Positions 7,725 to 62,384 of a stretch of DNA of 64,000 nt are shown in pieces. How positions within the stretch are numbered: position 1 is the stretch's first letter; each line of letters begins with the position of its first letter. The stretch comes from Candidatus Wolfebacteria bacterium GW2011_GWA1_44_24. GTDB taxonomy: Bacteria > Patescibacteriota > Minisyncoccia > UBA6257 > UBA9933. The translations under genes were made by a program, and so were the position numbers. The DNA is taken from positions 300,710-364,709 of the forward strand of contig LCIO01000001.1 of assembly GCA_001001115.1 (NCBI GenBank), written 5' to 3'. The notes under the pieces were generated by a model. The model had not been told where the DNA came from. It saw only the letters and a list, made by a program, of their open reading frames with translations, and did no database searches.

Positions 7725-8992
7725 AACTCGGTGGCCTTGAAAAAACCGACCGCAAACTTCACCGCTTTGTTGCGGCGGAAATTAAAAGGCAAAACGAAAC
7801 AATTGATTTAATCGCTTCGGAAAATTTTGTCAGCCCGGAGATTCTGGAAGTCTTGGGCTCGCCTTTAACGAATAAATATTCCGAGGGCTATCCCGGGAAA
7901 AGATATTATCCGGGGAATTTTTATTGCGATGAAATTGAAAAATTAGCTCAAGAGCGGGCGTTGAAGGTTTTTGGATTATCTCCCAAGAAATGGGGCGTCA
8001 ATGTCCAGCCATATTCCGGTTCGCCGGCAAATTTGGCGATTTATCTGGCTTTAATGAATCCCGGCGATATTTTAATGGGGATGAAGTTGGCCAGCGGCGG
8101 CCATTTAACCCACGGTCACAAAGCCAGTTTTTCCGGAAAATTATTTAAAGCGGTTCAGTATAGCGTTGATGAAAAGACCGGATTGATAAATTATAAGGAA
8201 GTTAAAAAGCTGGCAAAAAAACATAGGCCAAAAATAATTGTTTCCGGTTATTCCGCTTATCCGCGAAAAATTGATTTTAAGCGGTTTGGCGCGATTGCCA
8301 AAAAAGTCGGCGCTTGCCATTTGGCGGATATTTCCCATGTCGCCGGATTAGTTGTTGCCGGACTTCATCCGTCTCCTTTCCTTTATGCCGATATTGTCAT
8401 GACTACCACTCATAAAACTTTGCGGGGTCCGAGAGCGGCGGTTATTTTTTCAAAGTCAAATGTTAAATGTCAGATGTCGAATGTTTCAATCAGCGAAGCG
8501 ATTGACAAAGCGGTTTTTCCGGGCATGCAGGGCGGACCGCATAATAATGTCATTGCCGCGATTGCTTTGGCTTTCAATGAAGCGTTAAAGCCGGCTTTCA
8601 AAAAATATCAAAAACAAATTATAAAAAACGCCAAGGAGTTGGCGAGCGTTTTAAAAAATTACGGCTTTGATTTGGTAACTGGCGGTACGGACAATCATTT
8701 AGTTTTAATTAATCTTAAAAATATCGGGCTGAACGGCTTGGATGCGGAAAAGATATTGGAATCAGCCGGCATTATCGTCAACCGCAATTCAATTAGCGGC
8801 GATGTTTTGCCTTTCAAGCCGTCGGGAATTCGTTTGGGAACAGCGGCAATCGCCAGCCGCGGATTTAAAGAGAAAGAAATAAGGCAAATCGCCCGATGGA
8901 TTTACCGGCTGTTGATTGAAAAAGAGAAACCAGTCATAATAAGAAAAGAAGTCATTAAGTTGACAAAATATAAAAAGTATGCTATATATTGA
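7721..8992 (+). CDS. glyA: Serine hydroxymethyltransferase
   Basis: PLP-lysine motif TTTHKTLRGPR. 423 aa. ATGA overlap with the upstream gene. Confidence 0.95.
   Translation: MKLGGLEKTDRKLHRFVAAEIKRQNETIDLIASENFVSPEILEVLGSPLTNKYSEGYPGKRYYPGNFYCDEIEKLAQERALKVFGLSPKKWGVNVQPYSGSPANLAIYLALMNPGDILMGMKLASGGHLTHGHKASFSGKLFKAVQYSVDEKTGLINYKEVKKLAKKHRPKIIVSGYSAYPRKIDFKRFGAIAKKVGACHLADISHVAGLVVAGLHPSPFLYADIVMTTTHKTLRGPRAAVIFSKSNVKCQMSNVSISEAIDKAVFPGMQGGPHNNVIAAIALAFNEALKPAFKKYQKQIIKNAKELASVLKNYGFDLVTGGTDNHLVLINLKNIGLNGLDAEKILESAGIIVNRNSISGDVLPFKPSGIRLGTAAIASRGFKEKEIRQIARWIYRLLIEKEKPVIIRKEVIKLTKYKKYAIY
8455..8482 (+). repeat. Heptamer-periodic tract, GTCAGAT family (gtcaaat gttaaat gtcagat gtcgaat, then gttt)
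   Basis: Read directly. Lies in frame inside glyA and encodes VKCQMSNV. Confidence 0.8.
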
Positions 8993-9050
8993 ATAATTGT
9001 TTCAGCTCTTTAACTTTGTAATAAGCGCGACGACGCGACAAGGAGGACGC

Positions 9051-9200
9051 GTGAAAGTAATCAGCATAATCTTCTTTTTCTTGTTTCTGGTCTTTTGGGC
9101 GTTTACAAAGATAATTTTTCCGATGAACTGGGAAATAGACGAAATGACCCGTTGTGGGAGAAAGATCTTGGAAAAATCAAAAAAGCAAAAAGGAGGATAA
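9051..9200 (+). CDS. Tiny membrane protein (hypothetical)
   Basis: GTG start preceded by aaggagga. One hydrophobic helix, ISIIFFFLFLVFWAF. Confidence 0.35.
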   Translation: MKVISIIFFFLFLVFWAFTKIIFPMNWEIDEMTRCGRKILEKSKKQKGG

Positions 9201-9470
9201 ATGATAAGACGGGAAAGGAGAGTGTTTAACAAGAAGAGGATATTCCGGTCTTTTGTCGTTTTTGCTGCTGTCTTTGTGGTGGTGATGGTGATGGCATTTG
9301 CTATCGCCGTTCTTGCAAAGAACAGCTGGGGGAAGGAAGAAAGGAATGAGTGTCTGAAGTGGCAGAAAGAAGCAAGGGAAATACAGGGGTACTTTCTTGC
9401 CAATTGGCAGGCGGAGCAGTGCGCTCGCTGGGGCGTAAAAATAAACGCGCCGATAAAAGCTGATTTCTAA
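9201..9470 (+). CDS. Small TM-anchored protein (hypothetical)
   Basis: SD aaggagga immediately upstream. One TM helix (FVVFAAVFVVVMVMAFAIAVL) and 2 Cys in the ectodomain. Confidence 0.45.
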   Translation: MIRRERRVFNKKRIFRSFVVFAAVFVVVMVMAFAIAVLAKNSWGKEERNECLKWQKEAREIQGYFLANWQAEQCARWGVKINAPIKADF

Positions 9471-9478
9471 AGAAGGGG

Positions 9479-9688
9479 GTGATTAAAGTGAGCACTCAGA
9501 TAGAGAAAGAGGTGGAGATAAAAACGAACGAAGGGTTCAATCTGGTTTTTCACAAAAAGACAGGCAACGAGATTGGTCTTCATCCCTTTTCCCGCCCCAA
9601 AGACAAACCCGATGCGATTCTCTCCGCCATGGTTGTTGAAGGGGCTCGTCGGAAGGCCGAAAAACTGTTTTTGTATTCAAGGGGGTGA
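9479..9688 (+). CDS. Small hypothetical protein ending at an in-frame TGA
   Basis: SD gaaggggg. The likely true start is the GTG at 9488. Ends ...LYSRG-TGA. Confidence 0.4.
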   Translation: MIKVSTQIEKEVEIKTNEGFNLVFHKKTGNEIGLHPFSRPKDKPDAILSAMVVEGARRKAEKLFLYSRG

Positions 9689-9901
9689 TTTGGAATAACG
9701 ACAACGATAGAGTGGACTCCCCAGGGATTTGTTTGTTCGCATTGCGGTACGTCAAATCTCGATAAGCACGACAAATGCGGCAACTGCGATGAAAATCCGT
9801 ATGAACCACTGTCAAAAGACGCTTTGTTGACGCGAGAAGAGTTATCGACTTTTCGGGCCGTAATTAGGAAAGATAAAGTTATTGTGAGGCTTTCTGATTA
9901 A
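9689..9901 (+). CDS. Zinc-ribbon reading frame with no start codon, in the same frame as 9479..9688 across the TGA
   Basis: 70 stop-free codons: FGITTTIEWTPQGFVCSHCGTSNLDKHDKCGNCDENPYEP... No in-frame ATG/GTG/TTG occurs before or within the Zn-ribbon (CxxC...CxxC); the first in-frame candidate is a TTG at codon 47. Confidence 0.4.
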   Translation, partial: FGITTTIEWTPQGFVCSHCGTSNLDKHDKCGNCDENPYEPLSKDALLTREELSTFRAVIRKDKVIVRLSD

Positions 9902-9919: not shown

Positions 9920-9927
9920 ATTCTCCT

Positions 9928-11151
9928 TTAATTCATTATTTGCTGATTTAATATTTCTTCGACTATTTTCCCTTCATCCCAAGGAATTTTTTTGCCGCTT
10001 TCCACACACATCGAAGACTCGCTTCCTTTGCCGGTTAAAATCACAATATCATCTTTTTTTGCCAAAGAAAGCGCTTTTTCAATCGCTTCTCTGCGGTCAA
10101 CAATTTCGTATAAATTAGAAATTGAAAATTGAAAATCGGAAATTCCAGACTTTATATCCGATAAAATCTGGTTTGGGTTTTCATCGTACGGGTCTTCGTT
10201 GGTTAAGATAATTTCGTCGCAATATTGAGCGGCGATTTTGCCCATTGCCGGCCTTTTCCACTTGTCTCGGCCACCGCCAGCCGCCCCAAACACGCAAATT
10301 AATCTGCGTTGATTGCCTTGTAAAGTTTTATAAACATTAAGTAAAGAATCCGGCGTATGCGCGTAATCAATGATTATTTGAAAATTTTGCCCTTCTTCAA
10401 TAAACTCCATTCTTCCGGGAATACTTTTAATTTCAGAAAGTGTCTTTTTTGAGACCTCGTTTTCAACTCCGTATATTTCCGCTGTTTTTATGGCCGCCGC
10501 GGCATTGCTTAAATTAAAATTTCCCGCAATCTGAAGTTTCAATCCTTTAACATCTTCCAAAGAATAAGCGATTTTATTTTTTGCCGAAATATTCCAAAAC
10601 TCTTCAAAATATTTATCATCTTTATTGATAATATGGCCATTTTTTACGTTTTTGAAAAATTTTAATTTTGCTTGCTTGTAATTTTCAAAAGAGCCGTGCG
10701 ATTCAATGTGTTCCGGCGCCAAATTGGTGAAAACCGCGCTGTCAAAATTTATAAATTTATGGCGCGATTGAACGACGCCCTGAGAAGTAACTTCTATAAT
10801 CGCAAATCGACAGCCGGCTTTTTGAGCTTTGGCTAAAAATTTTTGGATATGAAACCTCCCGGGCATCGTCATTTTCAATTTATTTATCCAGACCTCATCC
10901 GCTATTTTAAATTGAATTGATGAAAGAGCGGCAATTTTATATCCCGCGGCTTCAAAAATTTTGCTTAAAAAATAAACAGTTGTTGATTTTCCTTTGGTGC
11001 CCGTGACGCCGATAACAATCATTTTTCCGGAAGGAAAACCGTAAATAAAAGCGCCCAAAAAAACCAGAAGAAAATGATAAGGCGGCTGAAGGCGGCGGTA
11101 TAAAAACTTCGGAATAATATATTTTTCTATAAATCTTAAAATTTTTTCCAT
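9928..11151 (-). CDS. Mur ligase family protein (MurE-like) lacking the usual N-terminal domain
   Basis: P-loop GVTGTKGKSTT, DYAHTPDSL and GAAGGGRDKWKRP. Only 407 aa, with a hydrophobic N-terminus. Confidence 0.75.
   Translation of the reverse strand: MEKILRFIEKYIIPKFLYRRLQPPYHFLLVFLGAFIYGFPSGKMIVIGVTGTKGKSTTVYFLSKIFEAAGYKIAALSSIQFKIADEVWINKLKMTMPGRFHIQKFLAKAQKAGCRFAIIEVTSQGVVQSRHKFINFDSAVFTNLAPEHIESHGSFENYKQAKLKFFKNVKNGHIINKDDKYFEEFWNISAKNKIAYSLEDVKGLKLQIAGNFNLSNAAAAIKTAEIYGVENEVSKKTLSEIKSIPGRMEFIEEGQNFQIIIDYAHTPDSLLNVYKTLQGNQRRLICVFGAAGGGRDKWKRPAMGKIAAQYCDEIILTNEDPYDENPNQILSDIKSGISDFQFSISNLYEIVDRREAIEKALSLAKKDDIVILTGKGSESSMCVESGKKIPWDEGKIVEEILNQQIMN
10112..10146. repeat. Heptamer-periodic tract (aaattag aaattga aaattga aaatcgg aaattcc)
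   Basis: Read directly. Lies inside the murE-like CDS, where the protein reads ISDFQFSISNLYE. Confidence 0.75.
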
Positions 11152-11154: not shown

Positions 11155-12405
11155 TCATCGCGCCGCCAAACCGCCGGGCAAATAATCCAGGGGGTCAATG
11201 GTTACGCCGATTGGCACAAGGCCGCAGTTGCAGTTTGGCAGATTTTGAAGTCGAATGCTCGGCTCCCAATAAAGTCCGAGATGGAGATGTCCTCGGCCAA
11301 TGGCGTAGCCGGTGTTGCCCGAATAGCCTATTAATTGTCCTTTTTTGACCAAATCGCCTTTTTTCAAAAGAGAATTATAAGAAAGATGGGCGTAAAGAGT
11401 GGCTAAGTTATTGTTATGTTTTATAAGAACGTATTTTCCATACTGATAGCGGCCGTTGTTGCCGATTGCCGTTATTTCGCCGTCGTCAGCGGAGAAAATC
11501 GCCGTGCCGATGGGCGTTCCGAAATCCATTCCATTGTGGGGTTTGCCTCGATAAAGCCGGGAAATTTCGCCGAATTTCTGAGTAATGCGCGGGTTAAGAA
11601 CGGGCCAAGCCAAAATGCCCGGACGCTTAAGCGGCAGAAGCGCGGGGTCGAAAGAGCGCCGCAATTCATCTTCCGTAAACTCAATTTCATCGCTGATGGC
11701 GCTTTGTTTTTTCTCCAAGTCGCTTAATGTTTGCTGATAAACTTTTTCCTGATTTTTAGTGGTTGTTAAAAGTGATTGTTTGTCTTTTTTAATATCTTCG
11801 GTGATTATTTTTTTGTTTTTAAGATTAAAATTTTCTTCTTCCTTGTCCAGTTTTTTATTCGAGAGTTCGTTAATTTTTTCACCTAACCGGGTTTTCAACG
11901 TTCGCATTTCGGCGATTTTATTCGATAAGTTTCCGCTTAAATCGGTTAATCCTTGGACTTCAAAAACGCTCTCGGCCAGACTTTTATTTTTGAGAAAAAT
12001 AACAAGCGGCGTTTCGCTGCTTTTTTGCTGAAGTTCTTTTAGAAGCTCGCTGACGCCTCTTTTTTGAATGTCGATTTTTTCTCCGATTTCGACAATATCA
12101 TTTTGAGCGGAATCAATTTCCAACCCTGTTTTTTCAATCAAAATTTCGCTGGCGCGGACGCTTAGATTGATTTGGTTGATTTGGGTGTTGATTTTATCAA
12201 CCTCTTTTTTCAGAGTCGCGCCTTTTTCTTTGGTTTCTTCGAGACTTTTTTGAGCTTCCTGGATTTGAGCGTTGATTTTCTGAAGTTCTTGAGTTTTTTG
12301 ACCGATGGATTCCTTTAATTCTTGCGGAGTGGCGGCAGAAACCGCTAAAACAGAAAACAGAAAACAGAAAACAGAAAACAGAAATATTTTATAAAATATC
12401 TTCAT
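11155..12405 (-). CDS. Secreted coiled-coil M23 peptidase (EnvC-like)
   Basis: Signal peptide and a long Gln/Lys/Glu coiled coil. M23 motifs HNGMDFG and HLHLGLY. Confidence 0.85.
   Translation of the reverse strand: MKIFYKIFLFSVFCFLFSVLAVSAATPQELKESIGQKTQELQKINAQIQEAQKSLEETKEKGATLKKEVDKINTQINQINLSVRASEILIEKTGLEIDSAQNDIVEIGEKIDIQKRGVSELLKELQQKSSETPLVIFLKNKSLAESVFEVQGLTDLSGNLSNKIAEMRTLKTRLGEKINELSNKKLDKEEENFNLKNKKIITEDIKKDKQSLLTTTKNQEKVYQQTLSDLEKKQSAISDEIEFTEDELRRSFDPALLPLKRPGILAWPVLNPRITQKFGEISRLYRGKPHNGMDFGTPIGTAIFSADDGEITAIGNNGRYQYGKYVLIKHNNNLATLYAHLSYNSLLKKGDLVKKGQLIGYSGNTGYAIGRGHLHLGLYWEPSIRLQNLPNCNCGLVPIGVTIDPLDYLPGGLAAR
12351..12385. repeat. Heptamer tandem repeat cagaaaa x4 plus cagaaat
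   Basis: Read directly. On the coding strand it reads ttttctg and encodes the signal-peptide core FCFLFSVFCFLFSV. Confidence 0.85.
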
Positions 12406-13326: not shown

Positions 13327-15423
13327 TTTGCTTAAAGCTTTTATTGAAAGTCCAATCTTGCCGTTTTCAACTTTAATGACTTTTACTTTGACAATATCGC
13401 CGATTTTAATCACGTCCTCCACTTTTTTAACAAAACCCTCTTTAAGTTCGGAAACATGAACCATTCCGTCTTTTCCGCCCCCCAAATCCACAATGGCGCC
13501 GAATTCCAAAATTTTTATCACCGATCCTTCCAAGATTTCTCCTATTTGGAATTGGCGGGTCAGGGATTTGATGTAGCGAATGGCCGAGATAACCTTTTCT
13601 TCAGCCATGCCGGCCACGAAAACCCGGCCGCTTTCTTCGATGTCAATGGTTTCCACACCTGTGTCTTTGATGATGGCATTGATGACTTTGCCGCCCGGGC
13701 CGATGACTTCGCCGATTTGTTCGGGCTTGATTTCCAAAGTCATGATAACCGGCGCAAAGGAAGAAATTTGGGCGCGGGGCTTGTCAATGGTTTTTTTCAT
13801 AAATTCCAAAATCTCCAGACGGGCTTTTTTAGATTGCATTAAAACTTCCTCGAGTATTTTGGGAGTAACGCCTTCAATTTTAACATCCATTTGAATCGCC
13901 GTAATGCCATCGCTGGTGCCGGCGATTTTACAGTCCATATCGCCGTAGTGGTCCTCTGGTCCTTGGATGTCGGTGAGAATTTTATATCGGCCGTCCGGCA
14001 CGCTCATTAATCCCATTGCAATGCCGGCAGCGGCTTTCTTAATTGGCACGCCGGCGTCCATCAAAGACATTGAAGCGGCTGAAACGCTTGCCATTGAAGA
14101 AGAGCCGTTGGAGGATAAGATTTCCGATACTACCCGGATGGTGTAGGGAAATTCTTCCGAAGAGGGAATCAGCGGCCGAACGGCTTTATCCGCAAGATTG
14201 CCGTGGCCGATTTCCCGCCGGCCCACGCCTCCCATCCGGCCGACTTCGCCGACCGAATAAGGCGGAAAATTATAATGGAGCATAAAGCGGCGCTTGCCGG
14301 AAATTTCCATTGTTTCAATCAATTGTTCGGCGCCGGGAGCCGCCAAAGTGGTGACAGCCAGAGCCTGAGTGTTGCCGCGCGCGAATAAAGCCGAACCGTG
14401 CAGGCGCTTGAATAATCCGATTTCGGCAAAAAGTTCGCGAACCTCGTCCAGTTTTCTGGCGTCGGGCCTTTTTTCGGATTCAATGATATTTTTATGGACG
14501 AGTTTATCAACTTTTTCTTCGAATAATTGGTCTGCCGACTCGAGTCCTTGAACCGATTCTTGGAGCAGATACTGTTTCAAATTTTCCTTAAGTTCGGCAA
14601 TTTGATTTTGACGCTCGGTTTTGTCTTTGACATAAAGCGCTTGCTCCAATTTGTCGTTTAAAAAATCAACGACTTTTTCACGAAGCTCGGCCGGCGGCTC
14701 GATTAAAGCCACTTCGGCTTTTTTTTGGCCGATTTTTTGGACAATTTCTTTTTGAAATTCAATAAGTTTTTTTATTTCTTCGTGCGCCAAAACGAAACTT
14801 TCAACCGCTTCTTTCTCTTCGGCTTCATTGCCGCTAAGTTCAATCATATTGATTTTATTTTCCGTGCCGGCGATAAAGGCGTCAAAAACAATGTTTTTAT
14901 TTTCCGTAAAAAGGCGATTAGTCGGGTTAATAACTGTTTCGCCGTCTTTGATTCTTGCCGTTCTTACGCCGGCAATCGGACCGTTCCAGGGAATATCGGA
15001 AATTAAAAGAGCGGCTGAAGCCGAAAGCAAAGAAATGAAATCCGGGTCGTTTTCTTCGTCGTAAGAAAGGACAGTAACGACAATCTGGATATCGCGGCGC
15101 ATTCTGGAATCAAAAAGCGGCCGGATGCTCCGGTCAATCAGCCGGCCGGAAAGAACCGCGGCTTCCGAAGGCCGACCCTCTCTTCTGATAAATCGCGAAC
15201 CTATGATTTTGCCGGCCGCGTAAAATTTTTCTTCGTAATCGACGACGAGCGGAAGATAATCGATGTCTTTGTCTTTGTTTCCCATTACGGCCGTGACTAA
15301 GACTGAAGTATCGCCGTATTGTCCCAAGACAGCGGCATTGGCTTGCTCGGCCAGTCGAGAAACGGTTAAGGTCAACGGCTGACCCGCAAAATCAATAGAA
15401 AATTGTTGTTTATTAAAATTCAT
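13324..15423 (-). CDS. pnp: Polynucleotide phosphorylase
   Basis: 699 aa. Two RNase PH domains followed by KH and S1 (GAIVDLGGGKDGMVHVSEL). Confidence 0.95.
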   Translation of the reverse strand: MNFNKQQFSIDFAGQPLTLTVSRLAEQANAAVLGQYGDTSVLVTAVMGNKDKDIDYLPLVVDYEEKFYAAGKIIGSRFIRREGRPSEAAVLSGRLIDRSIRPLFDSRMRRDIQIVVTVLSYDEENDPDFISLLSASAALLISDIPWNGPIAGVRTARIKDGETVINPTNRLFTENKNIVFDAFIAGTENKINMIELSGNEAEEKEAVESFVLAHEEIKKLIEFQKEIVQKIGQKKAEVALIEPPAELREKVVDFLNDKLEQALYVKDKTERQNQIAELKENLKQYLLQESVQGLESADQLFEEKVDKLVHKNIIESEKRPDARKLDEVRELFAEIGLFKRLHGSALFARGNTQALAVTTLAAPGAEQLIETMEISGKRRFMLHYNFPPYSVGEVGRMGGVGRREIGHGNLADKAVRPLIPSSEEFPYTIRVVSEILSSNGSSSMASVSAASMSLMDAGVPIKKAAAGIAMGLMSVPDGRYKILTDIQGPEDHYGDMDCKIAGTSDGITAIQMDVKIEGVTPKILEEVLMQSKKARLEILEFMKKTIDKPRAQISSFAPVIMTLEIKPEQIGEVIGPGGKVINAIIKDTGVETIDIEESGRVFVAGMAEEKVISAIRYIKSLTRQFQIGEILEGSVIKILEFGAIVDLGGGKDGMVHVSELKEGFVKKVEDVIKIGDIVKVKVIKVENGKIGLSIKALSK

Positions 15424-21936: not shown

Positions 21937-22728
21937 ATGTCGAGATATTTGGGACAACATTTTTTAATAGCTAAAAGAAAGATAGGAAAAATCGTTGAAT
22001 CGCTGGAATTGAAAGACAAAGACGTTATTATTGAAATCGGGCCGGGCAAAAGCGCTTTGACGATTCCGCTTTGTGAAAATTGCCGGAAACTCGGTTGTAA
22101 AATTATTGCCGTTGAAAAAGACAAATTGCTCGCCAATAATTTGAAAGAAAAATTCAAAAACGATAAAAATGTTGAAATTATAGAAGGAGATGTTTTAAAA
22201 ATTTTATCAAAAACAATAATTCAATTTAATAATCTTTCAACCGGCAATTATAAAATTGTCGGAAATATACCATATTATATTACTGGATATCTTTTAAGAA
22301 CTTTTGGCGAATTGGAAATTAAACCGTCTTTAATCATTTTAACGATTCAAAAAGAAGTTGCGGAAAGGATAATCGTAAAACCGCCCAAAATGAATTTACT
22401 GGCCGCCAGCGTTCAATTTTGGGCAGAACCGAAAATTATCGGCTATGTTTCAAGAAAAGATTTCAGCCCGCCGCCGAAAGTAGACAGCGCGATTATAGAA
22501 TTAAAAATTAAGAATTATGAATTAAGAATTAAGGATAATTATTACCGAATTATCAAAATTCTCTTTAAACAGCCGAGGAAGACGATATTAAACAATTTAT
22601 TGTCTGGAATCGGGGATAAAAATAAAGAAGAAATTGTTGAAAAATTGAAAAAAGCGGGTATTGATCCGCGGGCAAGGCCGCAAAATTTGAGCATTGAGCA
22701 AATTATCGAATTATCCACTTTATTTTGA
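21937..22728 (+). CDS. rsmA: 16S rRNA dimethyladenosine transferase RsmA/KsgA
   Basis: SAM motif IIEIGPGKSALT, plus NIPYYIT. Confidence 0.9.
   Translation: MSRYLGQHFLIAKRKIGKIVESLELKDKDVIIEIGPGKSALTIPLCENCRKLGCKIIAVEKDKLLANNLKEKFKNDKNVEIIEGDVLKILSKTIIQFNNLSTGNYKIVGNIPYYITGYLLRTFGELEIKPSLIILTIQKEVAERIIVKPPKMNLLAASVQFWAEPKIIGYVSRKDFSPPPKVDSAIIELKIKNYELRIKDNYYRIIKILFKQPRKTILNNLLSGIGDKNKEEIVEKLKKAGIDPRARPQNLSIEQIIELSTLF
22499..22533 (+). repeat. Heptamer-periodic tract (aattaaa aattaag aattatg aattaag aattaag)
   Basis: Read directly. In frame inside rsmA, encoding ELKIKNYELRIKD. Confidence 0.8.
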
Positions 22729-28382: not shown

Positions 28383-29036
28383 ATGCCAAAAGCGCAAAAC
28401 ATAGCCACTCAGCAATTCGTTGACATTGAAGAAATCCGCGACGGCGCCGTGATTTTGAAAAACGGCGGGTTGCGCCGGATTTTAATGGTTTCCGGCGTCA
28501 ATTTCGAACTGAAATCCGAAGAAGAGCAGAACATTATAATTTATTCTTTCCAGAATTTTTTGAATACTCTTGATTTTTCCATCCAATTAGTGGTCCATTC
28601 GCGGAAGACCAACATCAACGATTATCTTGAGAAATTGAACGTTCGTCTCGAGCAGGAAGAAAACGAATTGCTAAAAAATCAGATGTCCGAATATATGGAA
28701 TTTATCAGGGCGTTTGTGGAGACCAATCCGATTATGGCAAAGACTTTTTTCGCCGTTGTGCCTTACGAATCAATCGATATTTCCAAGGCTGGCGGAGATT
28801 TATTAGCCACCCTGAAATTCTGGGAAAAGAAAAAAAACGGGGAAAAAGACGATGGTTTGGAGCAAAAAATAACGCAACTTAACCAAAGAACCGATATTGC
28901 GATAAACGGCCTGAATCAAGTCGGTTTGCGCGCCGTGGCTTTGAACGACGAAGAACTGATAGAATTGTTTTATAACCTTTATAATCCGGAAACGGTCGAG
29001 AAAAAAGAATTGAAAATCGCTCATGGAGAAAATTAA
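28383..29036 (+). CDS. VirB4-like N-terminal domain encoded as a separate ORF
   Basis: FVDIEEIRDGAVILKNGGLRRILMVSGVNFELKSEEEQ resembles the N-terminus of Gram-positive VirB4/TrsE-type ATPases. Overlaps the next ORF by 14 nt in a different frame. Confidence 0.55.
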   Translation: MPKAQNIATQQFVDIEEIRDGAVILKNGGLRRILMVSGVNFELKSEEEQNIIIYSFQNFLNTLDFSIQLVVHSRKTNINDYLEKLNVRLEQEENELLKNQMSEYMEFIRAFVETNPIMAKTFFAVVPYESIDISKAGGDLLATLKFWEKKKNGEKDDGLEQKITQLNQRTDIAINGLNQVGLRAVALNDEELIELFYNLYNPETVEKKELKIAHGEN

Positions 29037-30771: not shown

Positions 30772-30787
30772 AAATTTCAAAATTAAA

Positions 30788-31120
30788 ATGGACGAACAAA
30801 AAAAAATTTCATTGCCGGAAACGCTGATTTTAACGATGTATATCGGTTTTACCGATTTAATCGGCATTGTTCTTGTTTTTGCCGGCTTGGATGATTTTGG
30901 GATATTAGACGCCATAACCTTTCCGGTAACCCAATTTTATTTTAGAATAAAAGGAGTTAAAGCAACCGCGGATTTAATAGGCAACCTCATTGAACTTATT
31001 CCTTATGTCGGGGCGCTGCCGATCAGGACAATTACTTTATTGATAACGATTTACGCGGCTAACCACCCCGAGAAAATTGGGGCAATGGGAAGCTTAATGT
31101 CGGCGGCAAAAACAAAATGA
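30788..31120 (+). CDS. Small multi-TM membrane protein
   Basis: Start set at the ATG at 30788. Has 3 hydrophobic segments. Confidence 0.5.
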   Translation: MDEQKKISLPETLILTMYIGFTDLIGIVLVFAGLDDFGILDAITFPVTQFYFRIKGVKATADLIGNLIELIPYVGALPIRTITLLITIYAANHPEKIGAMGSLMSAAKTK

Positions 31121-31818
31121 GACTTCACATCCCAAAACTTAAAACCCTCGTTTTTCTATTTTCTGCTTTCTGCTTTCTGCTTTCTGCTTTCGGGGCAAAT
31201 GCTCAAACCGCGCCCCAATTTTTGGTTTCTTGGAAGGCCCAGAGTTACGTGCCTTCTTGGTATCAAGGTAAAATTTTCCCGACCAACGGCAGTCGGATTG
31301 ACGTGAATTTTGAATTAATAGATAACGGGAAAATAGCCGACATTTCAAAAAAAGTCATCCGTTGGTATGTCAATGATGAATTGATGAAAAACGAAAAAAA
31401 CGGTTTGGGCATAAAATCTTTTTCTTTCAATGCCGCCGACTATCCGGGGAAGGAAACGGAAATCAGAATTGCCATGCCCGATTATTGGGACGTGCCGTTG
31501 GACAAAATTTTCATAATCCCGATAGTTTCGCCGGAAGTTGTTATTGACGCGCCTTATCCAAGCCGCCGGATTCCAGCTGATAGAAGCTCTTTTTTAGCCT
31601 ATCCGTTTTTCTTTAACATCGGAAATTCAAACAGTCTTTCTTTCGAGTGGTTTGTGAATGACCAATCGGCAAAAGCCGGAGAAAATCCTTCGGCGCTGAA
31701 TTTGAATATTGATTCAACGGCTCCCAAAGGGTTCGCCATTGATATTAAAGTCGTAGTCAAAAATTTGTTGAATGAAATGGAATTTGCGGGCAAAAACATA
31801 AAAATGGAAATAAAATGA
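31117..31818 (+). CDS. Secreted hypothetical protein
   Basis: Signal peptide LVFLFSAFCFLLSAFGANA. ATGA overlaps on both sides. Confidence 0.5.
   Translation: MRLHIPKLKTLVFLFSAFCFLLSAFGANAQTAPQFLVSWKAQSYVPSWYQGKIFPTNGSRIDVNFELIDNGKIADISKKVIRWYVNDELMKNEKNGLGIKSFSFNAADYPGKETEIRIAMPDYWDVPLDKIFIIPIVSPEVVIDAPYPSRRIPADRSSFLAYPFFFNIGNSNSLSFEWFVNDQSAKAGENPSALNLNIDSTAPKGFAIDIKVVVKNLLNEMEFAGKNIKMEIK
31154..31188 (+). repeat. Heptamer tandem repeat ttctatt plus ttctgct x4
   Basis: Read directly. Encodes the signal-peptide core of the 31117 ORF. Confidence 0.85.
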
Positions 31819-32714: not shown

Positions 32715-32737
32715 TTTATCATAATAGAAAATATTCA

Positions 32738-35179: not shown

Positions 35180-36085
35180 ATGCCCGAACTTCCTGAGGTC
35201 CAGACTATCGTAAACGATTTGAATAAAAAAATTTTGGGCCGAAAGATTGTTGGTGTCTGGCTTAATACCCTGAAAATCATCAAAAAGCCGAAAGCCGCTG
35301 ATTTGGAAAAGCAAATCAAGGGATTAAGAATTAAAGCCGTTAAACGCCGCGGGAAAAACATCCTTATTTATTTAGAAAAATGCCAGATGTTAAATGTCGG
35401 ATGTCAGACGTTTTTATTACTGATTCATCAAAAGTTAACCGGACATCTTTTAATGGGGAAGTGGAAAATTGAGAAGGGGCGGGTTAAAAGTTTATTAAAA
35501 GGACCGTTGGAAGAAAAAGTCAATAATTATATTCATTTAATTTTTTATCTGGACAACGGCTGGCAAATGGCTTTGTCGGATTTACGGAAATTCGCCAAAG
35601 TGCTGTTCGGCTTGAAAGAAGAAATTGAGAAATTGCCGGATTTGGCGGAAATCGGGCCGGAGCCGTTGGATAAATCTTTCAATTTTTTAATATTTCAATC
35701 AGCAATTTCCAATAAAAAAGGCAGGATTAAACAGGTTTTGATGGACCAGAAAGTAATTGCCGGCATCGGCAATATTTATTCGGATGAAATTTTGTGGCAG
35801 GCAAAGATTCATCCCTTTATTCCGGCTAACAAGCTAAAAATTAATCAGTTAAAAGCTTTGTATTCAGCGATGCGGCAGATTCTGAAAAAGGCCTTAAAAT
35901 TAAGAGGAACTTCAATCAGCGATTTTCGGGACGCCTTTGGCAAGCCCGGGAGATACGCGGAAATCAGAAAAATTTATCAACGCGAAGGCGAAAAATGCCC
36001 GCGTTGCAAAACAATCGTCAAGAGAGTTAAAATGGGAGGAAGATCGGCGCATTTTTGTCCAAGATGCCAAAGAAATCTAAGGTAA
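35180..36085 (+). CDS. mutM: Formamidopyrimidine-DNA glycosylase
   Basis: MPELPEV N-terminus with the catalytic Pro2. C-terminal zinc finger CPRC...CPRC. Confidence 0.9.
   Translation: MPELPEVQTIVNDLNKKILGRKIVGVWLNTLKIIKKPKAADLEKQIKGLRIKAVKRRGKNILIYLEKCQMLNVGCQTFLLLIHQKLTGHLLMGKWKIEKGRVKSLLKGPLEEKVNNYIHLIFYLDNGWQMALSDLRKFAKVLFGLKEEIEKLPDLAEIGPEPLDKSFNFLIFQSAISNKKGRIKQVLMDQKVIAGIGNIYSDEILWQAKIHPFIPANKLKINQLKALYSAMRQILKKALKLRGTSISDFRDAFGKPGRYAEIRKIYQREGEKCPRCKTIVKRVKMGGRSAHFCPRCQRNLR
35382..35409 (+). repeat. Heptamer-periodic tract, GTCAGAT family (gccagat gttaaat gtcggat gtcagac, then gttttta)
   Basis: Read directly. In frame inside mutM, encoding CQMLNVGCQTF. Confidence 0.8.
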
Positions 36086-55211: not shown

Positions 55212-56963
55212 ATGCTTAACCAGGAAATAGCCAAAATTTTTTATCAGATCGCTCAATATCTTGAAATTGAGGGCGTTGCTTTCAAGCCGCAGGCGTATGA
55301 GAAGGTGGCAATGAATTTGGAAATATTAAGCGAGAATATTTCCGACATTTATAGAAAAGGCGGACTTGGGGCGTTGGAACAGATTCCCGGCATCGGCAAA
55401 AGTATAGCGGAAAAAATCGAGGAATATATGAAAACCGGAAAAATCAAAGAATACGAGAAATTAAAAAAGAAAATTCCGGTTAATATCGAAGAATTAACGG
55501 CGGTTGAGGGAATCGGTCCCAAGAAAATCAAAATTTTATATCAGAAATTAAAGATTAAAAATCTGAAAGACCTGGAAAAAGCCGCCAAAGCCCGTAAAAT
55601 CGCGCCCCTATTCGGTTTCGGCGAAAAAACCGAAAAAAATATTTTGGAAGGCATAGAATTTTTGAAGCGAAGCAGGGGGAGATTTTTGCTTGGAGAGATT
55701 TTGCCGACAGTGGAAGAAATAATCAGGAAACTGGAAAAATTAAAAGAAGTGAAAATAATTTCGCCGGCCGGTTCGGTCAGAAGAATGAAAGAAACCGTCG
55801 GCGATGTTGATATTTTGGCGATTGTCGAAAATCCCGAAAGAATTATGGATTATTTCGTTTCTTTGCCGGAAGTTGTAAAAATTTGGAGTAAAGGACCGAC
55901 AAAAGCGTCAGTAAGGATGTCTCGGGGGTTTGATATTGATTTGCGGGTTTTGCCGGAAAAAAGTTTTGGTTCGGCGCTTCAATATTTCACCGGTTCAAAA
56001 GAACATAACATCGCGTTGCGGAAAATAGCCATTGATAAGGGATTGAAATTGTCCGAATACGGCCTTTTCAAGCGGACATCCGCCGGCTGGCGGATGATTG
56101 CCGGCGAAACAGAAGAAGAAATTTACGAAAAATTAGGGCTTAAATTGATTCCGCCGGAGATGCGGGAAAATTCCGGAGAAATTGAAGCGGCTTTGGCGGG
56201 AAAATTGCCGAGAATAATCGGTTATGGCGATATTTTAGGGGATTTGCACGTTCATTCGGATTGGAACGGCGGCAAGAATTCAATCGAAGAATTGGCCAAA
56301 GTGGCGATGGCAATGGGCTATCAATATATCGGCATTTCCGACCACACAAAATTTCTGGCAATTGAACACGGGCTTGATGAAAAAAAATTGGAAAAGCGGA
56401 ATAAAGAAATAGACAGGTTGAATGTCAAATTTAAAAGTCAGTTGTCAGGGGTCAGGGGTCAAATGTTTAGTATTTTAAAGGGTTGCGAAGCCAATATAAT
56501 GGCCGACGGCTCGATTGATATAAAAGACAAGGCTTTGGCAAAATTGGATTATGTAATTGCCGGCGTTCATTCGCAGATGAAAATGCCCAAAGAAAAAATG
56601 ACCGAAAGAATCATTAAGGCAATGGGAAATCCTCATGTTGATATAATTTCCCATCCGACCGGTCGGCTTATCGGCAGGCGCGACGAATATGAAATTGATT
56701 TTGACAAGATTTTGAAAGTTGCCGGAGAAACCGGCACGGTTTTGGAAATCAACGCTAATCCGCATAGATTGGATTTGAAAGATGTTAATATCAGGAAAGC
56801 CAAAAAAGCTGGCGTAAAATTGGTTATCAATAGCGATGCCCACCATAAAGACCAATTGAATCTTATGGAGTATGGCGTTAATCAAGCTTGCCGCGGCTGG
56901 GCCGAGAAAAATGATATTGTTAATTGCTGGCCGGCGAAGAAGATGTTAAAAATGTTAAAATAA
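55212..56963 (+). CDS. Family X DNA polymerase with a C-terminal PHP domain
   Basis: HhH GIGKSIAEKI, catalytic GSVRRMKETVGDVDIL, and PHP LHVHSDW. Confidence 0.9.
   Translation: MLNQEIAKIFYQIAQYLEIEGVAFKPQAYEKVAMNLEILSENISDIYRKGGLGALEQIPGIGKSIAEKIEEYMKTGKIKEYEKLKKKIPVNIEELTAVEGIGPKKIKILYQKLKIKNLKDLEKAAKARKIAPLFGFGEKTEKNILEGIEFLKRSRGRFLLGEILPTVEEIIRKLEKLKEVKIISPAGSVRRMKETVGDVDILAIVENPERIMDYFVSLPEVVKIWSKGPTKASVRMSRGFDIDLRVLPEKSFGSALQYFTGSKEHNIALRKIAIDKGLKLSEYGLFKRTSAGWRMIAGETEEEIYEKLGLKLIPPEMRENSGEIEAALAGKLPRIIGYGDILGDLHVHSDWNGGKNSIEELAKVAMAMGYQYIGISDHTKFLAIEHGLDEKKLEKRNKEIDRLNVKFKSQLSGVRGQMFSILKGCEANIMADGSIDIKDKALAKLDYVIAGVHSQMKMPKEKMTERIIKAMGNPHVDIISHPTGRLIGRRDEYEIDFDKILKVAGETGTVLEINANPHRLDLKDVNIRKAKKAGVKLVINSDAHHKDQLNLMEYGVNQACRGWAEKNDIVNCWPAKKMLKMLK
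56437..56464 (+). repeat. Heptamer-periodic tract, GTCAGAT family (gtcagtt gtcaggg gtcaggg gtcaaat, then gtttagt)
   Basis: Read directly. In frame inside polX, encoding SQLSGVRGQMF. An extra gtcaaat unit lies at 56424-56430. Confidence 0.8.
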
Positions 56964-58430: not shown

Positions 58431-58443
58431 ATCTTTGATTTAG

Positions 58444-58755
58444 TGGAAGCGAGCGGAATTGAACCGCTGTCCAAAGATTATCGGAAAAAATTTCTACAGG
58501 CTTATCCGCCTTTGGCGGAGATTTTTGCTCCTTATTTGTCTCCGGATATCGGAGCGTTTTTCCAGAGTTTGCCCAATTATTACACCGGTTGTCCCTTATT
58601 AGGCGTCAGGGGCCGATGGCTTCGGCGATTTATGCAAACGCCGGAGCAAAAGCCAAATTTTTGTTGGCAGTTATTTTGTTTTGATTGGATTAATGAGACA
58701 ATCGGCTCAGCCTGCGGTTTTATCGGAAAAATCTTTGTCGAAGCCTAGCGCTCCC
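58444..58755 (-). ncRNA. ssrA: tmRNA (ssrA)
   Basis: 5' GGGAGCG pairs with 3' CGCUUCC-A, including a G3:U wobble. T-arm AGCGG-UUCAAUU-CCGCU. Tag frame GCC AAC AAA AAU UUG GCU UUU GCU CCG GCG UUU GCA UAA encodes ANKNLAFAPAFA (58668..58630). CCA is not encoded. Confidence 0.85.
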
Positions 58756-59242: not shown

Positions 59243-59258
59243 TATGGAATAAGATGAT

Positions 59259-59837
59259 TTATGTACTACCCAAAAGCCTCCAGAAATCTCCCATTTCTCG
59301 ATCTTGTCTCAGGCATTTTATAAGCCTTGTGTCCAAATAAAAATGGAGGGAGTTTTGTATTTTTTTTATCCATTCCGAATATTCTTCCTTCTTATCATAG
59401 ACGTCCCTTCCAAGATCCAAAAAATGAATCCGCATATCTCTCAAATTAGCAACACTATTGCCAAGACTGGCAAAAAGCATTGTTATGGCAAAGACATCGC
59501 AAAGGAGTTCCCTCATATAGCCGCAATAGGGCACATAGAGGGGTTGTCTTAGCAGCACAAAATGATGTCCTAATTCATGAAATGTCAAGAAATCCAACCA
59601 CATTTGACAATTCGAAACTGGGAGGATCACGACCCTCTTGCAGGGGGGTTTTTCTCCCCTCTCGCTTAATCTTAAATAAGCTGTCGTCTCTTTCTGCTTA
59701 AAATCTGTTATTATCTGAATGTTGCAAATTTCGCAAAGGTTTTTGGCCGACCTTCCTTTAAATTCATCATAAATGTCCAAAAGAACTTTTAAGATTTTCT
59801 TTCTGTGGTGTATTCTTTCGTCAAATATCGTTGCCAT
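59259..59837 (-). CDS. HExxH zinc metallopeptidase, ImmA/IrrE (M78)-like
   Basis: FHELGHHFVLL motif. 192 aa with several Cys. The family call is from the motif only. Confidence 0.5.
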   Translation of the reverse strand: MATIFDERIHHRKKILKVLLDIYDEFKGRSAKNLCEICNIQIITDFKQKETTAYLRLSERGEKPPCKRVVILPVSNCQMWLDFLTFHELGHHFVLLRQPLYVPYCGYMRELLCDVFAITMLFASLGNSVANLRDMRIHFLDLGRDVYDKKEEYSEWIKKIQNSLHFYLDTRLIKCLRQDREMGDFWRLLGST

Positions 59838-59847
59838 TTTTCTTTTT

Positions 59848-59914: not shown

Positions 59915-60016
59915 ATATTTTAAGTATCAAGCATTAAGCATTATAAAAATAAAAAAGGCCTACTCAACATATAAATGTTTTTCGGCCATATTTTTTTAGG
60001 ATTTTCCCCAAGATTT

Positions 60017-60415
60017 TTATTTTTTTCTCGGATTTTTTCCGTTTTTTTCTGACCTTCCATCACAATCGGGACATGTTTCGTTTTTGAGATATTTATTTCT
60101 CGTAGGCGCAGCGCACATTTTACACCGCACTGCAAGCTCATTTATGAGTAAGGCTACGTCATCGACGCAGGGATCGCCTCCAAAGCGAGATTCTGCATAC
60201 TTGGAGAAAGGGCGATACTGAAAAAGCATTCGCGCTTCTTCTTTTGTCATGGGTTGTATTACAACGCCGACTCCTCCCTTTATTTCGTAAAATTTAACCA
60301 CCTTTTCTTCCTCGTATCGTTGTCTGGCATAGTCGATCAATCCTTTGTCAACTGAAAAAAGTTTTATGTGTTTTGGGTCAATAGCTGGGTTCATCTTGCC
60401 GCATTCTTCGCACAT
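60017..60415 (-). CDS. Hypothetical protein with N- and C-terminal zinc ribbons
   Basis: MCEECG... and CKMC...CPDC. SD aaggaggg upstream. Confidence 0.45.
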   Translation of the reverse strand: MCEECGKMNPAIDPKHIKLFSVDKGLIDYARQRYEEEKVVKFYEIKGGVGVVIQPMTKEEARMLFQYRPFSKYAESRFGGDPCVDDVALLINELAVRCKMCAAPTRNKYLKNETCPDCDGRSEKNGKNPRKK

Positions 60416-60502
60416 TTTTCCCTCCTTATTTGATAATTCTTTTTGATGTATTCGTAAAGAATGCCGTCTTTTTTTCTGGAGATTTTTACTAACCCCCTTC
60501 TT

Positions 60503-60721
60503 TCACAGTAAGAGAAGAAATCCTGTATTTTGTATTCTAAGCTCCTTTCTTAATTTCTTAAAGAAGAATTCATTAAGCCCGACTGGTTTTGAAAAACGAG
60601 ATAAGGTTGTTAAAAGCAATTCCCGTGTCCTTATCACGTTTTTTATAAAACCCTTTGGGGGACCAAAAACATCATAATAAACGTGAGCGATTTCCTTATT
60701 AGTAAGATTTTTCTCTCTCAT
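60503..60721 (-). CDS. Small hypothetical protein, possibly a disrupted winged-helix regulator
   Basis: SD aaggagggg upstream. Ends at a TGA, but both the 0 frame and the +1 frame stay open to 60415. Confidence 0.4.
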   Translation of the reverse strand: MREKNLTNKEIAHVYYDVFGPPKGFIKNVIRTRELLLTTLSRFSKPVGLNEFFFKKLRKELRIQNTGFLLLL

Positions 60722-60730
60722 TATCTACCC

Positions 60731-60797
60731 CTCCTTATTAAGTTTTAATTTCAATCTTTTTAAATTATAATAAAGTTAAATGATTAAGTCAATAATT
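60731..60797. repeat. 67-bp direct repeat, copy 2 (functional argS promoter and start)
   Basis: See copy 1; offset 883 bp. tataat at 60766-60771 and the ATG at 60780. Confidence 0.85.
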
Positions 60798-62384
60798 GAA
60801 AATTATCTTAAAAAAGCGATTAAAGAGAATATTGAGATAGAAGTTTTTGTTTCAGAAGGGGAGCAATTCGGACATTATTCGACGAATGTCGCTTTGAAAT
60901 TGGCGAAAATCAAAAAAGAAAATCCGATGGAAATTGCCGTAAAAATCGCGTCAGATGTCAGACATCGGATGTCAGATGTTTTTAATAAAGTAGAAGTCGC
61001 GCCGCCGGGTTTTATAAATTTTTGGCTCAAGCCGGAAGTTTTTCAAAACGAATTAAAAGAAGTTTTAAAGAAAAAAGAGAAGTACGGCAAATCGCAAATT
61101 GCAAAGCGTAAAGCGTGTAAAATTCAAATTGAATTTATTTCGGCTAATCCCACTGGTCCCTTGACTCTTGCCAATGGCAGGGGAGGTTTTTTAGGTGATG
61201 CTTTAGCTAATATTTTAGAATTTTGCGGATATAAAATTGAGCGGGAATATTATGTAAACGACACCGGCAATCAGATTTTAACGCTGGGAAAATCAATCTT
61301 GGCGGCCGGCGGATCCGTTCCATTCGAAGAAAAATTTTATAAAGGAGAGTATGTAAAAAAATGGGCAAAGAAAAATTCAGCGATAGTGAAAAAATACAAA
61401 GATAATCCATTAAAAGTGGGGAAATTGGCGGCTAAAGATTTTTTGACCGGAATTAAAAAAGTTCTTCAAAAAGAGGCAAAAATTAGTTTTGACCGCTGGA
61501 CTTCGGAAAATAAACACATTCACAAAAGAAGTTATATCAAAAAAACGCTGAATATCTTTAAAAAATCCGGTTTGGTTTATGAAAAAGACGGCGCTGTTTG
61601 GCTTAAAACTACGAAATTCGGAGATGATAAAGACCGCGTCCTGATTACCGGCGATAATTTTCCGACTTATTTTTTGGCCGATTCCGGCCATTATTTGGAA
61701 ACCAAAGAGCGGGGTTTTAGCGGGAAAATTGCTATTTGGGGACCGGACCATTTTGGCTATATCAGGCGCATTCAAACGGCGGCGGAAATTATGGGTTTTG
61801 AAAATTCCGAAATTATCATTACTCAGGCAGTTCGGTTGATGAGTCAAGGCAAGGAAGTTAAAATGTCCAAAAGGACCGGCGAATTTGTGACTTTTGAAGA
61901 ATTGATTAAAAAAGTCGGCGTTGACGCGACGCGGTTTTTCTTTTTAATGCATTCGCCGGATTCTCATATGGATTTTAACCTTGATTTGGCAAAAGAAAGG
62001 TCTTTGAAAAATCCGGTCTATTATGTTCAATACGCGGCAGTAAGATGTCAAAGTATTTTAAAAAAATCAAAAATCAAAGGCCAAAAACCAAAGGCTAAAT
62101 ATAATTTATTAAATACGCCGGAAGATATAAATTTAATTAGATTACTGGCGCGGTTTTCGGAAGTTGTTGAAGAAGCCGCTGGAAAATTAAACCCGCAGAT
62201 TTTGGCGCGTTATTCTTTGGATTTGGCGCGGCAGTTTCATAATTTTTATGAGAAAGAGCGAATAATCGGCGAAAATATTGATAAAAATTTATCATTGGCG
62301 CGTTTGGAACTGATAAAAGCTGTCCAGGCAGCTTTTAAAAATTTATTCGGACTTTTGGGTATTTCTATGCCGAAGAAGATGTAG
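60780..62384 (+). CDS. argS: Arginyl-tRNA synthetase
   Basis: SANPTGPL, KMSKRTG, and a C-terminal DALR-type anticodon-binding region. 534 aa. Confidence 0.9.
   Translation: MIKSIIENYLKKAIKENIEIEVFVSEGEQFGHYSTNVALKLAKIKKENPMEIAVKIASDVRHRMSDVFNKVEVAPPGFINFWLKPEVFQNELKEVLKKKEKYGKSQIAKRKACKIQIEFISANPTGPLTLANGRGGFLGDALANILEFCGYKIEREYYVNDTGNQILTLGKSILAAGGSVPFEEKFYKGEYVKKWAKKNSAIVKKYKDNPLKVGKLAAKDFLTGIKKVLQKEAKISFDRWTSENKHIHKRSYIKKTLNIFKKSGLVYEKDGAVWLKTTKFGDDKDRVLITGDNFPTYFLADSGHYLETKERGFSGKIAIWGPDHFGYIRRIQTAAEIMGFENSEIIITQAVRLMSQGKEVKMSKRTGEFVTFEELIKKVGVDATRFFFLMHSPDSHMDFNLDLAKERSLKNPVYYVQYAAVRCQSILKKSKIKGQKPKAKYNLLNTPEDINLIRLLARFSEVVEEAAGKLNPQILARYSLDLARQFHNFYEKERIIGENIDKNLSLARLELIKAVQAAFKNLFGLLGISMPKKM
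60950..60977 (+). repeat. Heptamer-periodic tract, GTCAGAT family (gtcagat gtcagac atcggat gtcagat, then gttttta)
   Basis: Read directly. In frame inside argS, encoding SDVRHRMSDVF. Also contains the nested palindromes gatgtc-a-gacatc-g-gatgtc. Confidence 0.8.
62062..62096 (+). repeat. Heptamer-periodic tract (aaaaatc aaaaatc aaaggcc aaaaacc aaaggct)
   Basis: Read directly. In frame inside argS, encoding KSKIKGQKPKAK. Confidence 0.7.

Follow-up and report, generated by a model that had tools for sequence, protein, structure and literature searches.

The window analysed here is a stretch of 64,000 nucleotides from Candidatus Wolfebacteria bacterium GW2011_GWA1_44_24 (contig LCIO01000001.1, positions 300,710 to 364,709), a member of the Patescibacteriota. 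Its glyA product is identical to that of Candidatus Wolfebacteria bacterium GW2011_GWA2_42_10 (contig LCCF01000004.1, Rifle groundwater). Conserved genes in this window contain short tandem arrays of 7-bp units, which are translated in frame. A subset of Patescibacteria, including this genome, carries such arrays in their hundreds, at about 8-19 per 100 kb, which is 10-20 times the density in other prokaryotes. The window was scanned with Tandem Repeats Finder (TRF), lag-7 self-match counts, and a local-score caller. An original prediction, made from the letters of the window, had claimed nine tracts; all of them are present at the given coordinates, in a 7-bp register and in frame in the named open reading frames (ORFs), and the peptides it quoted (e.g. 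VKCQMSNV and ISDFQFSISN) are correct on translation. Seven host genes were assigned by Pfam (SHMT, Mur ligase, Peptidase_M23, RrnaAD, Fpg, PolX+PHP, and ArgRS); the eighth host, which carries the 31152-31191 array, is a secreted protein without family. The arrays of the window are as follows:

8450..8484, plus strand: glyA array (amino acids 245-254), degenerate, with units GTCAAAT GTTAAAT GTCAGAT GTCGAAT; TRF 5.1 copies, 79% matches
10112..10146, minus strand: array in the C-terminal domain of a MurE-like Mur ligase (amino acids 336-347), sense unit of the TCAATTT type
12347..12385, minus strand: M23 peptidase array, perfect AAAACAG x5.4 (sense TTTTCTG); TRF 100%, score 76
22492..22533, plus strand: rsmA/ksgA array (amino acids 188-199), AATTAAG x5.9, alternatively 21 bp x2
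31152..31191, plus strand: secreted-ORF array, perfect TTTCTGC x4.6; TRF 100% matches, score 64
35378..35409, plus strand: mutM/fpg array (amino acids 70-79), the weakest tract, degenerate GTCAGAT type
56437..56464, plus strand: polX array (amino acids 409-418), GTCAGTT GTCAGGG GTCAGGG GTCAAAT
60950..60979, plus strand: argS array 1 in the N-terminal domain (amino acids 57-66), GTCAGAT type; TRF 4.3 copies, 73% matches
61087..61116, plus strand: argS array 2, absent from the original prediction (amino acids 102-112), GCAAATC x4.3; lag-7 matches 17/21
62062..62099, plus strand: argS array 3, weak (amino acids 428-439), AAAAATC / CAAAAACCAAAGGC; lag-7 matches 16/21
59920..59943, no strand: short and weak intergenic array, TTAAGCA x3.4, between the ORFs 59259-59837 and 60017-60415
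4454-4472: further weak period-7 array

TRF called period 7 at 8450-8484, 10119-10144, 12347-12384, 22492-22533, 31160-31191, 56444-56461, 60950-60979, and 62062-62078; the mutM tract (35378-35404) was called with period 14, not 7. In the best 28-nt window of each tract, where the maximum is 21 lag-7 self-matches, eight of the nine tracts reach 15-21 (glyA 16/21). The mutM tract reaches 13/21, which is not significant by itself. It has 4 mismatches to (GTCAGAT)x3, and is credible mainly because its unit belongs to the same GTCAGAT family as those of the glyA, polX, and first argS tracts; all four are followed by GTTT. Four-unit windows with a self-match of at least 76% were counted 9 times at lag 7, compared with 0.1 in codon-block shuffles, and lags 8-12 gave 0. 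The local-score caller found 10 period-7 tracts against 0.4 expected from codon-block shuffles; periods 4-15 gave 0-6. The period-7 signal is far above that of shuffled sequence, one of the two comparisons by which the original prediction could have been refuted.

The units had been described as imperfect. This is true of the degenerate tracts, but not of the two perfect arrays at 12347-12384 and 31160-31191. Only the rsmA tract can also be read with a unit that is a multiple of the codon (21 bp x2); the unit is otherwise 7 bp. One unit of the rsmA array is AATTATG, precisely where the frame would otherwise give TAA. Since 7 and 3 share no factor, the array peptides have a 7-residue period. 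The M23 and secreted-ORF arrays encode the hydrophobic signal-peptide cores FLFSVFCFLFSV and FLFSAFCFLLSA, respectively.

Loci fetched around glyA and, as an independent sample, around the Mur ligase were scanned for such arrays:

Patescibacteria, glyA loci: 646 kb, 52 period-7 arrays, 8.05 per 100 kb
Patescibacteria, Mur-ligase loci: 624 kb, 117 period-7 arrays, 18.8 per 100 kb
Other bacteria, in the scan of the glyA loci: 436 kb, 4 period-7 arrays, 0.92 per 100 kb
DPANN archaea, in the scan of the glyA loci: 116 kb, 1 period-7 array, 0.86 per 100 kb

Any other period gave at most 14 arrays in the glyA-loci sample and at most 20 in the Mur-ligase-loci sample. The trait is patchy. The loci rich in period-7 arrays are those labelled Wolfe-, Jorgensen-, Colwell-, and Sungbacteria, together with related Patescibacteria loci; the arrays are absent from most of the scanned Saccharibacteria loci, and from the scanned loci of Peregrinibacteria and Peribacteria. 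Base composition does not account for the excess, because loci of the Candidate Phyla Radiation (CPR) at 51% and 59% GC have 6 and 7 arrays, whereas AT-rich gammaproteobacterial and DPANN loci have zero; many AT-rich CPR loci likewise have none. Among the matches listed in the collection scans, there was no relative closer than 63-64% protein identity. Strict arrays were also counted over 1.40 Mb of Patescibacteria loci (n = 171). ORFs of at least 100 amino acids make up 86% of this sequence and hold 137 of the 171 arrays (~80%). The array density is 11.3 per 100 kb within ORFs and 17.5 outside, i.e. about 1.5 times higher outside.

The arrays of these loci are short. The length mode is 30-33 bp, both within ORFs (64/137) and outside (15/34), and almost all arrays are below 40 bp. 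They range from perfect to decayed. The incomplete last unit has 2-5 nt, far more than would be expected if arrays were extended by chance. On the sense strand, coding arrays contain 45% A, 25% T, 22% C, and 8% G; K, N, S, and Q are over-represented in their peptides, which also contain L, I, and T. Heptamer arrays drawn at random with this composition have no stop on a given strand in about 59% of cases. The composition of the coding arrays is what stop-freeness in three phases permits in an A-rich coding strand. Where there is no long ORF, many arrays have stops in all six frames. T-rich arrays lie at N-terminal signal peptides (12347 and 31152 in the window, and position 9195 of locus L025, among others), and A-rich arrays lie at Lys-rich loops. 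Adjacent pairs of non-genic arrays were also seen, at 10974-11000 and 11025-11052 of L021 and at 15176-15207 and 15215-15244 of L014. The units of the L021 pair (TAGCTTG and AAGCTAA) are roughly reverse-complementary, and the pair could form a hairpin; convergent pairs have been described in Xanthomonas too.

Arrays recur at orthologous protein sites, and this is clearest in glyA. The pyridoxal phosphate (PLP)-lysine motif is succeeded by a strand, and the glyA tract lies in the loop behind this strand. In a structure model (mean predicted local distance difference test score, pLDDT, 83), the tract is a coil between the strand 240-245 and the helix 257-264. Compared with the universal 7-residue loop, the window protein has 9 additional residues. 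Among 84 glyA genes from the fetched loci, the short loop is found in nearly all of those from non-CPR bacteria and DPANN archaea; the remainder of these have extensions that are not of the heptamer type. Heptamer arrays occur at exactly this loop in seven Patescibacteria lineages with differing units: GTCAAAT, AAACTCA (perfect), AAGCAAC, CGAATCG, GCCAATC, and GATTAAA, and also a double module of AAATCCC and AAATTCA, adjacent and 63 bp long. The glyA arrays begin on native Ser/Ala-Lys/Arg codons. The cleanest case is locus L008, whose glyA reads TTTTCAAG (AAACTCA)x4 AAACT-AT-CAATCGCC; judging from this sequence, four units and 2 nt would have been gained over an inferred native TTTTCAAG AAACTCA ATCGCC. 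On a neighbour-joining tree of 120 Patescibacteria homologues, the loop state changed at least 17 times. A large Patescibacteria clade of SHMT (P0024-P0116) has a conserved 10-residue loop insertion of the INKKSKIAKKQKIDLES type, which looks like an old heptamer array that is now under purifying selection.

The C-terminal site of the Mur ligase bears arrays with various units in dozens of orthologues. One clade uses AATTTCC, AATTACG, AATCACA, and AATTATG; another uses CAAATTC, CAAATCC, CAAATTT, CAATTAC, and AAAGCTC. The first unit shares bases with conserved Gly-Ile or Ser-Gln codons, and where the remaining units differ, it differs along with them. Mur ligases with an array are 3-9 residues longer than array-less orthologues, and the arrays span about 11 residues. 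A hairpin of the left flank with the unit (CGGATTT/AAATCCG) was considered at this site; it applies to one unit type only and was taken as coincidence. The folD gene has two recurrent array sites. All three argS sites have heptamer-type peptides in homologues, with one or two modules at the 62062 site. The 61087 site is an array hotspot in a predicted coil (102-113), where homologues with an array are 3 to 4 residues longer than those without.

The original prediction placed the tracts as insertions in loops. Alignments with orthologues showed that some tracts are indeed longer than their homologues, and others are length-neutral. The claim is correct for glyA, mutM, and polX when compared with solved homologues: the mutM tract adds about 8 residues, with an 8-residue gap opposite the tract in solved Fpg structures, and the polX tract adds about 8 residues, with an 8-residue gap opposite it in Thermus thermophilus PolX. 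It does not hold for rsmA and for the argS tracts at 62062 and 60950, which are discussed below. As a separate observation, a second small-insertion polymorphism was noted in Patescibacteria contigs, consisting of GC-rich palindromic hairpin-forming segments of 21-48 bp. Examples are L091 (~1756) versus L093, L109 (~2049) versus L130, L123 (~331) versus L155, L141 (~5245) versus L161, and L090 (~1973) versus L091. One palindromic segment, CTGCCTGCCGGACAGGCAGGT, adds 7 residues at the Mur-ligase site that otherwise bears heptamer arrays.

Variation within the population was compared over about 115 kb of aligned Wolfebacteria contigs, in which about five indels arose independently; this number excludes an 8-base N run and two 2-bp shifts that compensate each other. 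Contig L003 (99.4% identical, from a different sample) is without exactly one AAATTGA unit at 10119-10125 of the window (L003 4297-4330). Five other contigs and the window all retain the unit. As the flanks show no other difference, the Mur-ligase gene of L003 is frameshifted about 70 codons ahead of its usual stop; nothing nearby restores the frame, and the gene call ends early. The expectation that gain or loss of a unit would shift the frame is borne out by this one-unit loss, which truncates the Mur ligase. Unit-number variation among population contigs was seen as this one clean 7-bp step, and none was seen at the two perfect arrays. No length variant in the tracts other than that of L003 was seen in the aligned contigs, and none in Wolfebacteria protein clusters at 90% identity. 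The secreted-ORF array (31152..31191) has a point variant in the population (A to V). The glyA array is recognisably retained in a 70%-identical relative (L007), and the argS array at 60950 is retained in a 71%-identical homologue; other homologues have other heptamer-type peptides there. The GTCAGAT-type arrays are old. Elsewhere in the window, contig L183 has a 15-bp in-frame deletion (TCTTCCCGTTTTTTT) relative to 33965-33979, flanked by T runs, in a PAS/histidine-kinase gene.

The original prediction had not recognised the tracts as a described repeat class. Such a class is known: heptanucleotide simple sequence repeats (SSRs) have already been described and are over-represented in bacteria (PMC4692102, PMC4679880). 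The present arrays have at least three head-to-tail 7-bp copies, and are commoner than chance and than neighbouring unit sizes, as such SSRs are. According to the citation of Mrázek, Guo and Shah (2007) in PMC4692102, heptamers are over-represented among bacterial SSRs with 5-11 bp units, and the DNA footprint of the polymerase active site was proposed to favour heptamer slippage. The GGGAATC arrays of Xanthomonas and the GGGGAYT arrays of Nostoc have a modal number of four units and are over-represented intergenically (Rehm et al. 2015, PMC4692102). The arrays described here are similar to heptanucleotide SSRs in their tandem 7-bp units, in the specific over-representation of period 7, in a modal number of about four units, and in a sequence, and probably a length, that varies between relatives; polymerase slippage was proposed as the cause there. 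The Xanthomonas and Nostoc arrays, however, have one dominant G-rich unit per lineage, are described as largely intergenic, and occur in large genomes; the Patescibacteria arrays have many G-poor units, are translated in ORFs, including those of essential enzymes, in ~80% of cases, occur in genomes of ~1 Mb, and recur at orthologous protein sites. Three tandem heptanucleotides are cited for Calothrix PCC 7601 (in PMC4692102). These share with the present arrays the tandem 7-mers dispersed in many genomic copies. Cyanobacterial heptanucleotides were reportedly described by Mazel et al. in 1990 under the class name STRR. The STRR units are CCCCAGT, TTGGTCA, and CAACAGT, i.e. a few fixed units, often in long arrays, which are mostly non-coding. 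No STRR unit was found here, and the present arrays, in contrast, are capped near 4.5 units and lie mostly in ORFs.

Other repeat systems resemble the arrays in part. The TAACTGA direct repeats of Beggiatoaceae, cyanobacteria, and Bacteroidetes form sets of 2-6 copies, and a genome has hundreds of such sets; they lie directly before start codons, and were proposed to act in the regulation of translation (MacGregor 2015, PMC4679880). They are also heptamer direct repeats, but with a single conserved unit that contains stops (TAA, TGA); the units here are diverse, stop-free, and inside coding sequence. The Rickettsia palindromic elements are dispersed palindromic copies of one consensus, 100-150 bp long, in frame in conserved genes. 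They share with the arrays the tolerance of short in-frame DNA in housekeeping genes and its translation at permissive surface positions; however, the arrays are direct tandem repeats of about 30 bp, and their sequence is mostly site-specific. The tandem repeats of Borgs within ORFs have units whose length is always divisible by three (Schoelmerich et al. 2023, PMC9879509). Both are rapidly evolving, lineage-specific tandem DNA that adds new, often disordered peptide segments, but with the 7-bp unit each single-unit step is a frameshift. In the literature on CPR/Patescibacteria repeats, no prior description of abundant in-frame heptamer arrays in essential genes was found. As far as can be told, the density in Patescibacteria, the translation at recurrent sites of essential genes, the ~30-bp module, and the length-neutral overwriting are undescribed.

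Taken together, the tracts are likely to be heptanucleotide microsatellites which arose by template misalignment in a 7-nt register and were then sorted by selection; a probability of roughly 0.6 is given to this reading. In replication or repair, the strands would slip and mispair, or a local 7-mer would be copied over and over. Such writing would be largely independent of sequence, so that arrays may arise anywhere in the genome. Within genes, arrays would survive only if the frame is restored and the sense strand is free of TAA, TAG, and TGA in three phases, and only where 8-11 extra or replaced residues are tolerated, such as surface loops, linkers, helix ends, and signal-peptide cores. 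The units would then be kept alike by short-lived misalignments of a single unit (concerted evolution). The arrays would have no function of their own. A local origin of the misalignment type is supported by the clean one-unit deletion in L003, by the units that overlap conserved flanking codons (Mur ligase) or native codons (glyA), and by the T-rich units in signal peptides and the A-rich units in Lys-rich loops. The filter of selection is supported by the A-rich and G-poor composition of the coding arrays, the stops in many non-ORF arrays, and a density that is only about 1.5 times higher outside ORFs. Of separate interest for flap- or gap-linked repeat formation, the window encodes a stand-alone 5'-3' exonuclease, i.e. 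a FEN-like Pol I domain without polymerase (5660-6577, minus strand), and the PolX-PHP polymerase (55212-56963).

Several observations weigh against misalignment of this kind. Stepwise slippage alone predicts smoothly falling copy numbers and in-frame gains of 21 bp. Perfect arrays instead show a sharp mode near 4.5 units (n = 24), with n = 4 at 4.0 and n = 2 at 5.0, which is not the distribution expected from stepwise gain and loss. The glyA loop of the 120 homologues is bimodal, with 7 residues in 44 and 15-18 residues in 65, and hardly any intermediate; the usual gain is therefore about 30 bp and not the 21 bp of stepwise slippage. The array edges are sharp: in the 7-21 nt past strong arrays, agreement with the phased unit does not exceed that in distant controls, and when phase shifts are permitted, the flanks show weak upstream periodicity only. 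Neither of the two perfect arrays varied in length among the roughly 10 population contigs compared for each. Arrays often replace native sequence instead of merely adding to it. The rsmA tract is no insertion (KsgA of Bacillus subtilis is 3 residues longer there), the argS tract at 62062, in a predicted linker (430-440), equals the Campylobacter jejuni ArgRS in length, and the argS tract at 60950, in a predicted helix (49-63) and the following turn, has zero net length change. Finally, four unrelated window sites have the unit GTCARAT, as do another locus of L007 and the second and third argS sites of relatives; of 258 arrays elsewhere only 2 have it, one of them in the close relative L007.

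Two other accounts of the size were set aside. The arrays were considered as refreshed cores of larger decayed arrays, which does not agree with the lack of clear in-phase flank periodicity and the weak upstream signal with phase shifts. One native unit plus three added units (+21 bp) was considered behind the 4.5-unit mode; non-ORF arrays show an equal mode, and the glyA gain is +24 to +33 bp, mostly +30. A general genome-specific unit preference is not significant: unit similarity within contigs is not above that between contigs (permutation p = 0.12). A preference is seen only for GTCARAT in the Wolfebacteria clade, for which no binomial figure is given because a loose array caller blurred the consensus units.

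The sharp edges, the fixed size, the length-neutral overwriting, and the reuse of GTCARAT keep one-step patch writing, or copying between loci, in consideration. According to this explanation, which is judged rather unlikely, each array is a discrete module, a single-event sharp-edged patch of about 30 bp with 7-bp periodicity, rather than the product of unit-by-unit growth. It could be made by reiterative microhomology-primed synthesis in break or gap repair, or by short-patch copying from an existing array, as in a miniature dispersed repeat family. The size, quantised at 30-33 bp inside and outside ORFs alike, fits such modules, as do the gain of 8 to 11 residues (mostly 10) in the glyA loop without intermediates, and the two different modules that adjoin at L009 7566-7628 and at L014 15176-15244. 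The GTCARAT arrays are all sense-oriented, and the four in the window have a common start and end phase, which also fits such modules. However, the units are unlike each other at most sites of one genome, they fit the local context and overlap the flanking codons, and the sole polymorphism seen is a single-unit step. Terminal repeats, target duplications, inverted ends, and associated genes were not found at the modules. The variants common to the GTCAGAT arrays are all transitions, which could easily recur by chance. It is a slightly stronger, though still doubtful, suggestion that a branch of the Patescibacteria may have a distinctive DNA-synthesis or repair activity which writes sharp-edged, 7-bp-periodic patches of about 30 bp. 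With the same reserve, a patch of this kind may lengthen a gene by about 10 codons or be written over what is there with no change in length. Patches may return to the same permissive positions in essential genes, and a preferred unit may sometimes be reused at several loci.

It is quite improbable that the arrays are kept by selection for a function, whether as phase-variation (contingency) switches, as periodic mRNA- or DNA-binding sites, or as loop insertions of adaptive value. The recurrence at orthologous sites with a near-constant length while the unit drifts could be read in this way, and some inserted peptides are conserved across large clades, e.g. INKKSKIAKKQKIDLES in the glyA loop. 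A regulatory role was proposed for the TAACTGA heptamers of Beggiatoaceae (PMC4679880). Contingency loci have their SSR in a surface or variable-function gene, with frequent on/off frameshift alleles in populations. A frameshifted allele does segregate, in L003, and no other length variant was found in the ~115 kb of aligned contigs. The hosts are mostly housekeeping enzymes, where on/off switching is costly, and no length polymorphism was seen at the perfect arrays. The unit is conserved neither among the sites of one genome nor between orthologous sites, which makes a sequence-specific reader implausible. Moreover, non-coding arrays have a similar density, and about half of the glyA homologues are without the insertion, which was gained or lost at least 17 times on the tree. 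Chance in an AT-rich, Lys-rich coding genome, to which the weakness of some tracts by themselves (mutM at 13/21, and the A-rich, low-complexity 62062 tract) might point, is hardly credible, and a composition artefact was rejected on the shuffles and the cross-lineage controls: codon-block or dinucleotide shuffles yield 0.1-0.8 against 9-13 observed, neighbouring periods are not enriched, AT-rich non-CPR and DPANN loci are without arrays, and perfect arrays of 30-38 bp cannot come about randomly.

Two other features of the window were noted. The region 29023-33859 contains a TraG/DUF87-type P-loop ATPase, small ORFs, the secreted ORF with the TTTCTGC array, and a T4SS_pilin-domain protein; this cluster looks like a type IV secretion or pilus-like apparatus. 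A transfer-messenger RNA (tmRNA) gene lies at 58443-58755 on the minus strand, with the tag peptide ANKNLAFAPAFA.

A repeat unit that is not a multiple of the codon should be the least tolerated in genes; yet it is the dominant tandem repeat here, and is mostly translated in essential enzymes. This points to an unusual DNA-copying bias in the lineage. The 7-nt register and the ~30-bp product are quantitative signatures, which can be compared with the content of replisome and repair genes across CPR lineages, and the polymerase-footprint idea for heptamer slippage becomes directly testable. Many of the lineage-specific insertions that appear when CPR proteins are aligned are explained by the arrays, which can lead alignments, phylogenies, and structure predictions astray and are usable as strain-level markers. 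If patches are written in one step, the process would amount to a novel mutational signature, or to a templated insertion mechanism in miniature, and not to ordinary microsatellite slippage, and it would give reduced genomes a steady supply of new loop and signal-peptide sequence. Since translated 7-bp repeats are dominant in them, these reduced-genome bacteria carry both a standing risk of frameshift and a source of new peptide segments.

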